Virus genome (UHGV): UHGV-0036384 | DNA from: a virus | Strand: one strand, 5' to 3' | Length of the DNA: 64,000 bases | Part shown: positions 32,675 to 55,886 of the stretch, piece after piece | Position numbering within the stretch: position 1 is the first letter of the stretch | Layout of the letters: each line of letters starts with the position of its first letter | Position numbers and translations under genes: made by a program | The notes under the pieces: model-generated | Told to the model about the DNA's origin: nothing | Seen by the model: the letters and a program-made list of their open reading frames with translations, nothing else | Databases searched by the model: none

Positions 32675-33868
32675 GTGACCTGGGACGATCACAAGAAGAA
32701 TTTTGCTCGCCTGGCGCGAGATGGTGGTTACACCATCGCACAATATGCCGCCGAGTTTAATCTCAACCCAAACACCGCACGTCGTTATCTCCGTGCATTC
32801 AAAGAAGACACCGGAACAGCGGACAGCCGTAAGCCAAATAAGCCTGTCAGAAAACCACTAAAAAGCATGATCATTGATCACGCTAATGATCAACGTGCAG
32901 GTGATCACATTGTGGCTGAAATGGCTGAAAAACAAAGAGTTAATGCTGTTGTCAGTGCCGCAGTCGAGAACGCGAAGCGCCAGAATAAGCGCATAAATGA
33001 TCGTTCTGATGATCATGACGTGATCACCCGCGCCCACCGGACCTTACGTGATCGCCTGGAACGCGACACCCTGGATGATGATGGTGAACGCTTTGAATTC
33101 GAAGCTGGCGATTACCTGATAGATAACGTTGAAGCGCGGAAGGCCGCGCGCGCTATGTTGCGTCGGTCCGGGGCCGATGTTCTGGAAACCACTCTTCTGG
33201 AAAAGTCTCTTTCTCATCTCCTTATGCTGGAGAACGCCAGGGATACGTGTATTCGCCTGGTGCAGGAAATGCGCGATCAGCAAAAAGACGATGATGAAGG
33301 TACTCCGCCTGAATACCGTATCGCGAGCATGCTAAACAGCTGTTCCGCGCAGATAAGCAGCCTGATCAACACCATTTACAGCATCCGGAATAACTATCGA
33401 AAAGAAAGCCGGGAGGCGGAAAAGCACGCTTTGTCTATGGGGCAAGCTGGCATTGTTAAGCTGGCATACGAACGAAAGCGTGAAAATAACTGGTCAGTGC
33501 TGGAAGCAGCTGAATTCATCGAGGCGCATGGCGGGAAAGTGCCGCCCCTGATGCTGGAGCAAATCAAAGCCGATCTGCGTGCTCCTAAGACCAATACCGA
33601 TGATGAGGAAAGGCAAACAGCCGTCGGTGGCCCTTCTCTTGAAGATCTGGACAAAGTTGCGCGAGAACGGGCCGCCAACCGCCGCGCCGATGCCGCATTG
33701 TGGATTGAGCAGCGTAGGGAAGAAATCGCCGATATCGTTGATACAGGCGGTTATGGAGATGTTGATACTGAAGGTGTATCAAACGACCCATGGCTGGAAC
33801 AAGACCTGGACGAAGACGAGGAGGAAGACGAAGAAGTTACCCGCAAGCTATACGGGGATGATGATTAA
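32675..33868 (+). CDS. pacA: terminase small/pac-recognition subunit PacA (397 aa, GTG start)
   Basis: Gene contains the hexanucleotide pac site; acidic C-terminus; immediately upstream of pacB with ATGA coupling. Confidence 0.85.
32868..33026 (+). other. pac packaging site (4 + 3 TGATCA/G hexamers, Dam-methylatable)
   Basis: TGATCA at 32868, 32875, 32887, 32902 and TGATCG/TGATCA at 32998, 33010, 33021, matching the published 4+3 architecture of P1 pac. Confidence 0.85.
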
Positions 33869-35352
33869 TGGCCAGAAGTTGCGTAACGGATCCACGTTGG
33901 CGCGAGCTGGTGGCGCTATATCGTTATGACTGGATTGCGGCCGCTGATGTTTTGTTCGGCAAAACACCTACCTGGCAGCAGGATCTGATTATTGAGTCTG
34001 TGCAGGAACAGGGTAGCAAGACATCTGTTTCGTCTGGTCACGGTACCGGGAAATCAGACATGACTTCTATCATGATCATGTTGTTCATAATCATGTATCC
34101 AGGTGCCCGTGCCATTATCGTTGCGAACAAAATTCAGCAGGTAATGACCGGTATATTCAAGTACATCAAGATAAACTGGGCTACTGCCACCAGCCGTTTC
34201 CCATGGCTTGCTGATTATTTTGTTCTGACAGAAACCGCTTTCTATGAGATTACTGGTAAAGGTGTATGGACTGTAGTACCGAAGGGCTTTCGTCTGGGAA
34301 GTGAAGAAGCTCTCGCCGGTGAACACGCAGATCATCTTCTGTATATTATCGATGAAGCCTCCGGTGTCAGTGATAGAGCTTTCGGTATCATCACCGGTGC
34401 TCTTACCGGACAGGATAACCGCATCTTATTGCTGTCACAGCCTACACGCCCAAGCGGCTATTTCTACGATACACACCATAAACTGGCCAAGCGTCCTGGT
34501 AACCCTGATGGCGTTTATACGGCGATCACGCTTAACAGTGAGGAATCACCGTTGGTAACGCCAGCATTTATCAAAATGAAGCTGGCGGAGTACGGCGGGC
34601 GTGATAACCCTATGTACATGATTAAGGTACGCGGCCTATTCCCTAAATCACAGGATGGCTTCCTTCTTGGACGTGATGAGGTTGAACGTGCAACGCGGCG
34701 GAAAGTCAAGATTGCAAAAGGATGGGGCTGGCTTGCATGTGTGGACGTTGCTGGTGGTACGGGACGGGATAAGTCCGTTATCAATATCATGATGGTGTCC
34801 GGCCAGCGAAATAAACGCCGTGTAATCAACTATCGAATGCTGGAATACACAGACGTTACAGAAACGCAGCTTGCCGCCAAAATTTTCGCAGAATGTAATC
34901 CTGAGCGATTCCCAAATATCACCATAGCGATAGACGGCGATGGCCTGGGTAAAGCAACGGCGGATCTGATGTACGAGTATTATGGTATTACCGTACAGCG
35001 TATACGCTGGGGTAAAAAGATGCATAGCCGTGAAGATAAGAGCCTGTACTTTGATAAACGTGCTTATGCCAACGTTCAAGCCGCAGAGGCCGTAAAATCT
35101 GGTCGTATGAGACTGGATAAGGGTAATGAAACTATTGAGGAAGCGTCGAAAATCCCTGTAGGGATTAACTCCGCAGGTCAATGGAAGGTGATGAGTAAGG
35201 AGGATATGAAGAAAAAACTCAACCTGCACTCACCAGACCATTGGGATACATATTGTTTCGCTATGCTGGCTGATTATGTTCCCCAGGATGAAGTGCTTAG
35301 CGTCGAAGACGAAGCGCAGGTTGATGAAGCTCTGGCATGGCTTAATGAATAA
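33868..35352 (+). CDS. pacB: terminase large subunit PacB (494 aa)
   Basis: Walker [10 protein letters not shown], Walker [12 protein letters not shown]-terminal nuclease-type domain. Confidence 0.85.
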
Positions 35353-52943: not shown

Positions 52944-52960
52944 ATTGCTCTAATTAATTT
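52944..52960 (+). promoter_or_regulatory. C1 operator upstream of ssb
   Basis: ATTGCTCTAATTAATTT. Confidence 0.6.
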
Positions 52961-52979: not shown

Positions 52980-53468
52980 GTGGCACAACGCGGTGTAAAC
53001 AAAGTCATCCTGATTGGTACCCTGGGGCAAGACCCGGAGATCAGGTATATACCAAATGGCGGCGCGGTCGGAAGACTCAGCATCGCAACGAATGAATCAT
53101 GGCGCGACAAGCAAACGGGCCAACAGAAAGAGCAAACAGAATGGCATAAAGTCGTTTTGTTCGGAAAACTTGCTGAAATTGCGAGTGAGTATTTACGAAA
53201 AGGTTCTCAGGTCTACATCGAAGGGAAACTTAAAACCCGTAAGTGGACAGATGACGCCGGTGTAGAACGTTACACGACGGAAATTATCGTCAGCCAGGGC
53301 GGCACCATGCAAATGATCGGCGCTCGCCGCGACGATTCACAGTCCTCAAATGGCTGGGGGCAGTCAAACCAACCTCAAAACCACCAGCAATACAGCGGTG
53401 GTGGCAAACCTCAGAGCAGCGCCAATAACGAACCTCCAATGGACTTTGAAGACGATATTCCGTTTTAG
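52980..53468 (+). CDS. ssb: single-stranded DNA-binding protein (162 aa, GTG start)
   Basis: Very high similarity to E. coli SSB including C-terminal DFEDDIPF tail. Confidence 0.95.
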
Positions 53469-53670: not shown

Positions 53671-54459
53671 ATGGCAGCACAAAATACTAAAACAATTCAA
53701 TACCGCCTGCGTAATGGCCAGAGTGTCGAAGTGACCATCAATAATGATGGTGTACCTGGCGAAAAGGTTTCTATCTCCGATCTGGCTATCGAAAAAACCA
53801 TCATGTGCCACCTTGGCTTTACTGAAGAAGTGAGCAAAAAGCATGGTGTAGCAATCTGGAGCGCAATGGATACTGGTATGCGCAAATTCATTACTGCTCG
53901 TACCCCAGGGATGACCATGATGGACCTCATGCAGATTGCGCCGCTGTTTGAATGTGAGCCTTTAGATGTATTCAGCAATCCAGCTATCTGCCAGCAGTTA
54001 TATGGTGAGATGAAACTCGCGGTTACCCCCATTGTGCTGCATGAAGGATCGCTTGCTGGCGTGTGGAAAGTGGAGCGTATTTCAAGCTACATGCCTTTCC
54101 ATGTCAACGGCGTAATCACTGGTGAAAATCAACCTGTTTCCGTTATAAAGTCAGACCTCAAGCGCGCAATTCTTGAAGCAAGTTGTCGAGTTGTCGGCCT
54201 GGGCAAACAGTCTTATGTTTCCTTCCCGGCTGGCCCTGAAGGCCCGGCAGAAATTCTGATTATGGATGCCGATCTGCTATGGCAAATACAGTTTCTGATT
54301 GGCAAAAGCATCATCCGCGCTGAAGAACTCGATCAGTACATTACCTGCACGATGACGGATGAAGTCAAAAGTGTGGCTATAGCCAATGCCCGGAACCTAT
54401 GTCGTGCTGCATTAACAGAACTGCAAGAAAACACCACGGAAGAGGTGGAAAGTGATTAA
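53671..54459 (+). CDS. hypothetical protein (~263 aa)
   Basis: ORF; start chosen at internal ATG 53671. Confidence 0.4.
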   Translation: MAAQNTKTIQYRLRNGQSVEVTINNDGVPGEKVSISDLAIEKTIMCHLGFTEEVSKKHGVAIWSAMDTGMRKFITARTPGMTMMDLMQIAPLFECEPLDVFSNPAICQQLYGEMKLAVTPIVLHEGSLAGVWKVERISSYMPFHVNGVITGENQPVSVIKSDLKRAILEASCRVVGLGKQSYVSFPAGPEGPAEILIMDADLLWQIQFLIGKSIIRAEELDQYITCTMTDEVKSVAIANARNLCRAALTELQENTTEEVESD

Positions 54460-55546
54460 TCGTATACAGAATGAATCTGCCTGGTTAGCACTGATAGAAC
54501 GGTATAAAGACAATTGGGAACTGGCAGCAAAAGAGTTGCTTGATATTGAGTTAACACCTCATCAAGCAAAAATTATTAACGCGATAAAGAACACCGGAGC
54601 CAAAGTCACTGCCACCACACCACATGGTATTGGGGAAACCTCTATTGTGGCAGTGATTAGCATCCTGCAAACAATACTGTATTCGTGTTCCCGTACAGTG
54701 GTTGTTTCTCCTGCGATTAACGATAGTCGAAAAACAATAATTGACTATATGTTCCGTTATTGGGAGCGAGTTACCCAAAAACACCCTTTTCTTGGCAATT
54801 ATTTCAGAATACACCCTGACAAAGGGTTGGTGCATATCAGTGAAACATGGGGATGCGTCTATATAACCTATTGTCTGAATAACGAAGAGTCTCTGGCTGG
54901 TTTTACTGGACCGCACGATCTTTTCATCGTTATTAACTCGGCGGAAATCAGCGATCGCGCTCATGCAGTGATAACTGGCAATTTAACCAATTATGACTCG
55001 CGCCTGCTGTTGCTGTCGAAACCATCGGAACGCGAGAAAGGGTACTTTTATGATTCGCATCACCGGTTGGCCCATAGTAAAAACAATCCTGCTGGTTTTT
55101 TCACGGCGATAACTCTAAACACAGAGGATTCACCTCTCGTTTCTGAAGCATATCTTGAATTCAAAGCCAAAGAGTTTGGTGGGCGCAATAGCGATGAATA
55201 TCGCCGATTGATCTTGGGGAAATTCCCCGGGATTCGGGAGTTGATGGAAAAGTCATCTGTTCCCCGTAATATGCACTTCACAATGACTGACGGTAGTAAA
55301 TGGGTAGTGCCTACGATCGTGATCGCCAAACACCATGCGAAACATCACGCTCAAAAACACAACTCCAGCACATTAGACTGGCTGAAGGCCTATACAATAC
55401 CGTTATTCTCGGCAAACCATAACGCTATAACTGAATGGGCTAAACAAATCCCCTGGCAGGATGTGGCTGAAGAGGCATTTGTCGAAAAACCACCAAGAGA
55501 TTTGCACGAGCACTGTTGGCTGACATCAGAAAAAAGCTTCTCGTGA
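54452..55546 (+). CDS. terminase-large-subunit (PacB) N-terminal paralog with degenerate Walker motifs (364 aa)
   Basis: Collinear similarity to PacB residues 30-260; Walker A GKS replaced by GETS, Walker B DEAS replaced by NSAE; no nuclease domain. Confidence 0.5.
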   Translation: MINRIQNESAWLALIERYKDNWELAAKELLDIELTPHQAKIINAIKNTGAKVTATTPHGIGETSIVAVISILQTILYSCSRTVVVSPAINDSRKTIIDYMFRYWERVTQKHPFLGNYFRIHPDKGLVHISETWGCVYITYCLNNEESLAGFTGPHDLFIVINSAEISDRAHAVITGNLTNYDSRLLLLSKPSEREKGYFYDSHHRLAHSKNNPAGFFTAITLNTEDSPLVSEAYLEFKAKEFGGRNSDEYRRLILGKFPGIRELMEKSSVPRNMHFTMTDGSKWVVPTIVIAKHHAKHHAQKHNSSTLDWLKAYTIPLFSANHNAITEWAKQIPWQDVAEEAFVEKPPRDLHEHCWLTSEKSFS

Positions 55547-55551
55547 GGTAA

Positions 55552-55575
55552 AAATCCCGCCGATTGGCGGGATTT
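55552..55575. terminator. bidirectional terminator
   Basis: AAATCCCGCC-GATT-GGCGGGATTT between convergent operons. Confidence 0.7.
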
Positions 55576-55577
55576 CT

Positions 55578-55886
55578 TCAATATACGATCTGGTCTACAT
55601 GATCACCAAAATCATCGTCGTCGTCCTCATCGCCACCATCTACTGCTGGCCAATCAACAAACCAGCCAGCGTAAAGATGCAGCGTTCGGAGAACATCACT
55701 TGCGGGAGCATCAAGGGTGTTAACGAATCCCATATAGCTATTGGGATTTGCCCCAGCTATGGCTTCAGCGATCATGTCCTCGGTAATGTCACCGGAGATA
55801 ATGCTTAAACGCCCGGAAACTTCTTCATTATCATCAAATTCGATAATGGCATCTCCACCTAATGGCGCTGCGATTTTAATCTGCAT
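55578..55886 (-). CDS. acidic small protein (102 aa), last gene of the dar operon
   Basis: ORF with C-terminal poly-Asp tract. Confidence 0.4.
   Translation of the reverse strand: MQIKIAAPLGGDAIIEFDDNEEVSGRLSIISGDITEDMIAEAIAGANPNSYMGFVNTLDAPASDVLRTLHLYAGWFVDWPAVDGGDEDDDDDFGDHVDQIVY

Follow-up and report, generated by a model that had tools for sequence, protein, structure and literature searches.

We report that the 64,000-nucleotide stretch of virus genome UHGV-0036384 (the window, in what follows) carries, apart from the genes for the PacAB terminase, a second terminase-related gene. We refer to this gene as psiTerL, and its 364-residue product is almost certainly a non-catalytic paralog of the PacB ATPase domain that has been kept by selection. 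The window interval is 96-100% identical at the nucleotide level to P1-like phages and phage-plasmids, and psiTerL is one of at least 11 PacB paralogs, all nuclease-less and Walker-dead, that form a clade found across P1-like, D6-like and other PacAB-type phage-plasmids. Tentatively, we propose that psiTerL mimics the ATPase domain of the terminase and may serve as a decoy in host-phage conflict.

In a BLASTP comparison, psiTerL and the PacB encoded in the window align collinearly over residues 11-272 of both proteins, with 95 identities over 266 positions (36%; E = 6e-55). This similarity is far above chance and bears out an earlier interpretation of the DNA (the sequence-only reading), in which the open reading frame (ORF) at 54452-55546 was described as collinear with the N-terminal half of PacB; the shared blocks pointed out at that time, i.e. 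LAG... and RLLLLSKPSEREKGYFYDSHHRLAH, are likewise present. The alignments place the Walker A motif of PacB, GHGTGKS, opposite PHGIGETS in psiTerL, and the degeneration of this motif was correctly recognised from the letters. For Walker B (LYIIDEAS in PacB, LFIVINSA in psiTerL) the proposed loss of the Asp-Glu pair stands, but the register given for it, NSAE, was one residue out, the true replacement being Ile161-Asn162. Neither Walker motif is thus intact in psiTerL, and of motif III (SQPTR in PacB, SKPSE in psiTerL) only S189 and P191 remain. The RNase H-like nuclease domain is missing as well, as had been claimed: the protein ends at residue 364, and residues 265-364 cannot be aligned to PacB 275-494 and constitute a separate domain family. 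The lid motifs GYFYDSHH, EDSPLV, YGGR..Y and LG.FP are retained, and the conserved lid region is made up of GYFYDSHH, E225-S227-P228-V230 and G243-G244...Y250. Because the catalytic motifs are lost, we infer that psiTerL is unable to hydrolyse ATP or to cut DNA, and therefore that it would work by binding. Unlike the functional terminase gene, which is part of the packaging module, psiTerL is not adjacent to pacA.

Profile searches agree with this assignment. Among the PHROG profiles psiTerL matches phrog_5902, labelled as unknown function, at 1.6e-186, and the large terminase profile phrog_2 at 3.6e-9. The absence of a Pfam match to psiTerL carries no information, since Pfam fails to match the genuine PacB as well. 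An exhaustive HMMER search of a representative library returned 746 relatives at E<=1e-3; these are mostly terminases of ~500 aa, with an additional set of shorter relatives of 244-444 aa.

The AlphaFold2 (AF2) model of psiTerL, built on 54 relatives, has a mean predicted local distance difference test score (pLDDT) of 86, with values >90 over most of residues 11-260. Foldseek comparison of this model with the PDB gave solved TerL ATPase domains as the first matches, headed by Sf6 gp2 (1e-9) and followed by P74-26, D6E and T4 gp17 (entries among the top matches: 4idh, 4znl, 5oe8 and 2o0j), and the search against viral models (BFVD) returned large terminases. The structural check suggested earlier came out in favour of a terminase relative. 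In the model, the degenerate P-loop is situated between the strand 51-55 and the helix 62-76, and the Walker B remnant at the end of the strand 157-161.

The C-terminal domain, which occupies the place of the nuclease domain, is predicted to be a small beta-beta-alpha-alpha-alpha unit with a pLDDT of only 57-75, and carries the conserved signatures MxDxSxW..P..V.A and TxPLF...WA...W.DV. It has no Pfam match, and a PDB sequence search gave only a chance-level hit (E 0.11). Stand-alone homologs are P0126 and gp35 of Cronobacter phage JK004 (locus L085 5010-5306), the gene for the latter being located downstream of dmt and a DnaB-type helicase gene; moreover, the domain forms the C-terminus of ORF36 of Xanthomonas phage CP2 (phrog_17928, with a weak DUF1351 match; L086 3920-4300). 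A remnant of the nuclease domain was considered and ruled out, as the domain is an independent protein in unrelated phages. Because it is found alone or fused to other proteins elsewhere, it is an acquired, mobile module and not a degraded nuclease. Other members of the clade have no extra domain (P0006, P0007, P0009, P0013 and P0014) or a different one (P0010); the ATPase-like part is therefore the common core.

The loss of catalytic residues separates two groups within the family. In the alignment, all 40 full-length relatives keep GxGK[ST], [DE]E and [QN]PT, while each of the 12 nuclease-less relatives is without all three; specifically, the P-loop lysine is present in 100% of the former and in 0/12 of the latter. 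The same holds for 80 fetched viral loci, where GTGKS is found in each ~500-aa copy, a match to a hydrophobic stretch followed by DEA in all of these except one, and neither in any of the extra copies. In the tree, eleven of the dead copies group in a single clade within the PacB family (neighbour-joining bootstrap 80%). With its three motifs lost, no nuclease domain and a genuine PacB in the same window, psiTerL is a member of phrog_5902 and of this dead clade. Eight positions are conserved in the genuine terminases only, including the Walker A lysine, the Walker B aspartate and glutamate, the glycine after DEAS and the arginine after motif III. Conversely, 17 positions are conserved in the dead clade only, in particular W11, L14, W22 and A26 in the N-terminal helices, and R251. 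Common to the two groups are the Q-motif (Q37/Q38), the P-loop glycines, LAG, GYFYDSHH, ExSPxV and GG...Y. One further protein, P0042 (268 aa, alignment A3), has lost Walker A, Walker B and motif III (AQGAFDST / VVSKAAE / SKPI). Its place in the tree is outside the main dead clade; catalysis may have been lost more than once among stand-alone terminase ATPase domains.

Selection on psiTerL was assessed on 40 fetched copies from P1-like and D6-like loci, which are open over the full length, one of them (phage 813R1) with an indel at the 3' end. For the most diverged P1-like pairs dN/dS (Nei-Gojobori) is 0.22 (L019) and 0.26 (L021), and against the D6-type copies it is <=0.2, with dS saturated in the latter comparison. 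psiTerL is therefore kept by purifying selection and is not a decaying pseudogene. The P1-type and D6-type proteins are 52% identical overall, and conservation is highest in the N-terminal helices 9-35 (67%), GYFYDSHH (78%), the lid end 232-260 (62%) and the C-terminal core 273-335 (67%), the last being the best-conserved large block of the protein. The 813R1 copy (phage vB_EcoM-813R1, L003 3453-4523) is 99.5% identical to psiTerL, is annotated as 24 nt shorter and is recovered as two tblastn pieces; its last part shows many apparent non-synonymous changes, which suggests that an indel or a frameshift lies close to the 3' end.

The gene is an accessory one. Of the plasmids in PLSDB, 489 have the P1 portal gene and psiTerL is present in 120, about a quarter of the P1-like plasmids, and only three P1-like phage records have it; the copies in these 120 plasmids and three records are identical or near-identical. 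Among D6-like elements the paralog is covered in only 34 of 122 matching plasmids, again roughly a quarter. A genuine PacB is present on the same contig in every paralog locus with enough flanking sequence. The order of genes in the D6-like elements is pacA, pacB, (hypothetical gene), an integrase gene, two hypothetical genes, dut, a Tad2-like gene, an IsaA homolog, the 364-aa paralog and convergent genes, with the start of the paralog overlapping the upstream stop as in the window; sister elements (L077) have the same operon, ending at IsaA. Because divergence between P1-like and D6-like elements is comparable for the paralog (52% identity), IsaA (48%) and PacB (57%), the data fit a gene that has long been in this place and has frequently been lost, rather than one recently transferred. 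psiTerL is equally distant from the PacB of P1 and that of D6 (35-37% identity), and PacA of P1-like and D6-like elements is only ~21% identical.

In other lineages the neighbours are different. The start of the dead paralog overlaps the end of a gene for a Ref-like RecA-dependent HNH nuclease (PF16786, 1.9e-34) in L059 and L060; in L060 the two genes cover 19024-19698 and 19695-20486, and the 263-aa paralog shares an ATGA overlap with the nuclease stop. L063 has the Ref-like nuclease gene and no paralog. A P0007-type paralog directly follows a radical-SAM gene (L093 5027-6795). In L095 (6001-6759 and 9240-12247), a parM-like partition operon separates a P0014-type paralog from pacA-pacB, 2.5 kb downstream of it, and a C1-type repressor is nearby. 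IsaA was considered as an obligatory partner and ruled out, since it occurs without the paralog in L077; the paralogs that follow the Ref-like nuclease or the radical-SAM gene, or that stand alone, also contradict it. Because the neighbours of dead paralogs differ between lineages, there is no constant partner gene. A domain of the Tad2-like Thoeris anti-defence family (PF11195, ~2e-22) is encoded directly upstream of the isaA homolog in the D6-like pTB423 and the P1-like SJ46 (L084 8337-9014 and L087 1204-2049), in genes annotated only as DUF2829 protein or hypothetical.

A scan of species-representative genomes gave three loci only: a P1-like contig, a probable mis-binned fragment and a frameshifted PacB of Xenorhabdus. 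The fragment (L091 3-644) is 100% identical to psiTerL; the 7-kb contig that contains it bears the label 'MAG: Bacillota bacterium' and most likely is a mis-binned enterobacterial phage-plasmid contig. The gene in Xenorhabdus szentirmaii (L092 5527-6995) encodes a genuine PacB homolog (GHGTGKS, VDEASG) split by a frameshift into ORFs of 318 and 201 aa; the split reflects either prophage degradation or an error in sequencing, and the protein is outside the dead-paralog clade.

Within the window the local gene order is lyz (- strand), ssb (+), isaA (+) and psiTerL (+), followed by the convergent hxr-ddrB genes of the dar anti-restriction operon, and the placement of psiTerL between ssb and dar in the sequence-only reading is therefore correct (Table 1). 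That reading also placed the IS1 of P1 at roughly this position and supposed that the ancestral gene might be intact here. The first part holds, the slot being the one where P1 has isaA, 94 bp, IS1 and isaB, followed by hxr; P1 holding an IS1-split copy of psiTerL does not. Nucleotide similarity between the window and P1 stops at 54460 (9 bases into psiTerL) and resumes at 55580 at hxr, blastn gives no match between 54461-55579 of the window and the P1 interval, and P1 IsaB has no significant similarity to psiTerL (best E 0.056). The P1 isaB gene as a fragment of psiTerL, or of a gene split by IS1, was accordingly rejected, as the flanks of IS1 are not homologous to the two halves of psiTerL. 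Because similarity is interrupted over psiTerL and IsaB is unrelated, P1 carries a different cargo in the slot. In a looser sense, the arrangement in the window may be the one closer to the ancestral state.

Still other cargo is found elsewhere: SJ46 has the Tad2-like gene and isaA only, Ro157c2YLVW an extra 95-aa ORF, and phage JL22 (L089 2645-3757) has ompD, which encodes an outer-membrane porin, on the other strand in the ssb-hxr slot, with no isaA. The JL22 cargo illustrates the free exchange at this slot. The slot corresponds to variable regions described for P1-like elements, RD-2 (PMC6906374) and region 2 (PMC9603915), and the parts of these two reports that describe the regions make no mention of a terminase-like gene. 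A CRISPRi screen of P1 found neither isaA nor isaB to be essential (PMC10695390).

Homologs of IsaA (24-97% identity) are present in nearly every fetched PacAB-type phage-plasmid locus, and in the D6-like elements the gene is ~5 kb downstream of pacB. Its name derives only from the IS1 neighbour in P1. No Pfam family covers IsaA, and its AF2 model, of low confidence (pLDDT 67), gave no Foldseek match in the PDB at E<0.1. A role as a PacA-like small subunit found no support, there being no sequence similarity to PacA.

Several features bear on the expression of psiTerL. The gene starts with GTG at 54452 and ends with the stop codon at 55544-55546. The isaA stop (54457-54459) overlaps its start, and the overlap suggests that the two genes are translationally coupled. 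Eight C1-operator-like sites (<=2 mismatches to the P1 consensus) are present in the window against 0.04 expected, at 2290, 5812, 5823, 16243, 22008, 36787, 36870 and 52944; none of these eight is directly upstream of pacA. A simple terminator scan found no + strand terminator-like site between ssb and the end of psiTerL. Because Ossb is conserved and no such site precedes the end of psiTerL, the gene is probably the last one of a C1-repressed early operon, ssb-isaA-psiTerL. The stops of the convergent psiTerL and hxr are separated by a gap of 31 nt that contains a GC-rich hairpin; its T-run is better on the minus strand, and it likely is a bidirectional terminator. The pacA-pacB pair is ~19 kb upstream of psiTerL.

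Table 1. Positions in the window of psiTerL, its domains and motifs, expression signals and related genes
Feature	Position	Strand	Basis or remark
psiTerL, 364-aa Walker-dead PacB ATPase-domain paralog with C-terminal domain	54452..55546 (including stop)	+	ORF list
ATPase-like domain with predicted TerL fold, aa 1-260	54452..55231	+	AF2 and Foldseek
Walker A remnant PHGIGETS, aa 57-64	54620..54643	+	alignments; Glu62 at the P-loop Lys position
Walker B remnant LFIVINSAE, aa 157-165	54920..54946	+	alignments; Ile161-Asn162 in place of Asp-Glu
Motif III remnant SKPS, aa 189-192 (SQPT in PacB)	55016..55027	+	next Arg lost (R194 position)
GYFYDSHH, aa 197-204	55040..55063	+	strongest motif common to psiTerL and genuine PacB; nearly invariant in both clades
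C-terminal domain, aa ~265-364	55244..55543	+	in the place of the nuclease domain; no alignment to PacB
Shine-Dalgarno GAGGTG, 6 nt upstream of the psiTerL GTG	54442..54447	+	read from sequence
isaA, 262 aa from ATG 53671 (ORF open from 53551), operon gene upstream of psiTerL	53671..54459	+	phrog_2326
ssb, at the head of the presumed operon ssb-isaA-psiTerL	52980..53468	+	
C1 repressor operator Ossb ATTGCTCTAATTAATTT, 17 bp, overlapping the ssb promoters	52944..52960	+	identical to P1 NC_005856 annotation
Perfect 10-bp GC-rich hairpin AAATCCCGCC-GATT-GGCGGGATTT, 4-nt loop	55552..55575	.	read from sequence; terminator scan silent
pacA, 397 aa, partner of genuine PacB	32675..33868	+	
Genuine pacB, 494 aa, parent family of the paralog	33868..35352	+	nuclease half, GTGKS, IIDEAS and SQPTR intact

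How might a dead terminase ATPase domain be of use to the element? Few phage proteins are as conserved as the large terminases, and these are recognised directly by several immune sensors of bacteria. As a decoy, psiTerL would be co-transcribed with ssb and made early after induction or infection, ahead of the terminase, and would pre-occupy host factors that recognise the terminase ATPase domain, e.g. the Avs1-3 or Upx sensors of E. coli and Salmonella. The sensor would then be bound by a protein without the ATP and the active-site residues needed for activation, and a further contact, or steric hindrance, could come from the added C-terminal domain. For EcAvs2 and Upx, the ATPase domain of the terminase is by itself a sufficient trigger, and SeAvs3 and EcAvs2 read its active-site residues together with the bound ATP (PMC13601566); the active-site features that are read are those lost in psiTerL. 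Furthermore, vs.8 of T4, a stand-alone TerL-ATPase paralog, fits the EcAvs2 pocket, and the authors considered that such proteins may be anti-defence factors (PMC13601566). The genomic context is also one of conflict: psiTerL is a patchy accessory gene that closes operons of early regions and here occupies a known variable region, adjoining the dar anti-restriction operon (hxr-ddrB), with a Tad2-like gene upstream of isaA in relatives. The broader version, in which P1/D6-type phage-plasmids encode a whole family of early, dead terminase-ATPase decoys against Avs1-3/Upx sensing, is more doubtful still.

Several observations weigh against a decoy. Neither PADLOC nor NCBIfam has a match for psiTerL; the window lacks the Tad2-like gene, with no copy between 53468 and 53671; the anti-defence neighbours amount to guilt by association; and the neighbours in the rest of the clade (Ref-like nuclease, radical-SAM gene, parM operon) are uninformative on immunity. 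Judging by T4 vs.8, fitting into an Avs sensor should lead to its activation rather than to a block, and a protein that has lost ATP binding may simply not bind the sensor. The residue that replaces the P-loop lysine in the dead clade varies (E, R, H, T, M, I or C), as expected under relaxed constraint and not for a tuned surface. Finally, that psiTerL is transcribed early, before the late-expressed terminase, we infer from the P1 annotation, and the proposed link to the sensors, drawn from context, is held with low confidence.

A close rival to the decoy, which corresponds to the suggestion in the sequence-only reading that the protein could regulate or compete with the terminase, is that the dead domain docks on PacB, PacA or pac DNA as a non-productive subunit; pac cleavage by the element itself would be delayed until late, or the terminase of a competing P1/D6-type phage would be poisoned. 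We regard this as unlikely, albeit with points in its favour. psiTerL is a paralog of PacB that retains the most conserved non-catalytic lid motifs, genuine PacAB are on the same contig wherever the flanks sufficed, and the paralog in L095 is only 2.5 kb from pacA. In addition, catalytically dead subunits of ring ATPases are dominant-negative in terminase motors. On the other hand, psiTerL is far from pacAB, in an early, accessory operon outside the packaging module, it is absent from ~75% of the P1-like elements, including P1, which package normally, and a self-poisoning subunit would be costly. Its equal distance to the PacB proteins of P1 and D6 gives no sign of cognate matching, and PacA is an unlikely partner because the N-terminal helices of psiTerL are conserved across elements in which PacA is divergent. 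In some terminases, moreover, the contact with the portal is carried by the nuclease half, which psiTerL does not have.

We consider it still less probable that psiTerL is a scaffold in DNA metabolism, in which the dead core would bind DNA or protein and work with Ssb, a Ref-type nuclease or IsaA, with the C-terminal domain as adaptor. Its neighbours could be taken to argue for such a role, i.e. ssb in the window, dut, the Tad2-like gene and the IsaA homolog in D6-like plasmids, and the RecA-dependent nuclease whose gene overlaps the paralog start in L059 and L060; the ban neighbourhood is also counted here. So are the associations of the C-terminal domain, which occurs alone by dmt and the DnaB-type helicase gene (JK004) and fused to the DUF1351-like protein of CP2, and its standing as the best-conserved large block. 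However, the neighbours change between lineages, IsaA (L077) and Ref (L063) occur without the paralog so that no partner is fixed, psiTerL has no recognisable DNA-binding motif, and early operons of phages mix replication and anti-defence genes. That psiTerL is a non-functional relic, a decaying fragment of a pacB duplicate carried along, would agree with the loss of all catalytic motifs and with its dispensability in most P1-like elements, but is highly improbable because the selection analysis shows constraint (40 open copies, the 813R1 indel being at the 3' end of one; dN/dS ~0.2 in P1-like and <=0.2 across the ~50%-diverged D6-like copies), to which the fold with pLDDT >90, the 17 clade-specific positions and the well conserved C-terminal domain can be added.

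Our literature searches found no described Walker-dead PacB paralog or terminase pseudo-paralog in P1-like elements. The gene is labelled 'hypothetical protein' by PGAP, and two GenBank phage records (MH422554.1, corresponding to L002 3459-4553, and MH445380.1) label it 'terminase large subunit' beside the real pacB; such a label can mislead pipelines for terminase-based phage typing, phylogeny and prediction of packaging mechanism. psiTerL is a concrete candidate for counter-defence against terminase sensing, or for a weapon or regulator that acts on packaging. If it proves to be an immune decoy it would be of high interest, as no earlier counter-defence against Avs/Upx would have arisen by duplication of the very protein that is sensed.

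Compared with known systems, psiTerL shares with PacB, the large terminase of P1 (pacase B), the ATPase-domain homology and fold, the N-terminal helices, the Q-motif (Q37/Q38) and the lid motifs. PacB differs in that its motifs are intact, it has the nuclease domain, and its gene is beside pacA and essential, whereas psiTerL is dead, has another C-terminal domain and is an accessory product of an early operon. With the P1 isaA-IS1-isaB region it has in common the slot between ssb/isaA and hxr-ddrB and the variability of its cargo, psiTerL being present here in place of IS1 and isaB. Decoys and sponges of anti-defence such as Tad2 and Ocr are likewise early, accessory, patchy and near anti-defence genes, but psiTerL has no homology to any known anti-defence protein and this likeness serves as a working analogy only. 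The closest described counterpart is T4 vs.8, which is also a stand-alone copy of a terminase ATPase domain (that of gp17), accessory and encoded outside the packaging genes (PMC13601566). As far as the two can be compared by description, vs.8 has retained both of its Walker motifs (A and B) and is an activator of EcAvs2, whereas psiTerL is Walker-dead, of the PacB lineage and equipped with an extra domain, and thus represents a stand-alone terminase-ATPase paralog in the form of a pseudo-enzyme with an added domain.

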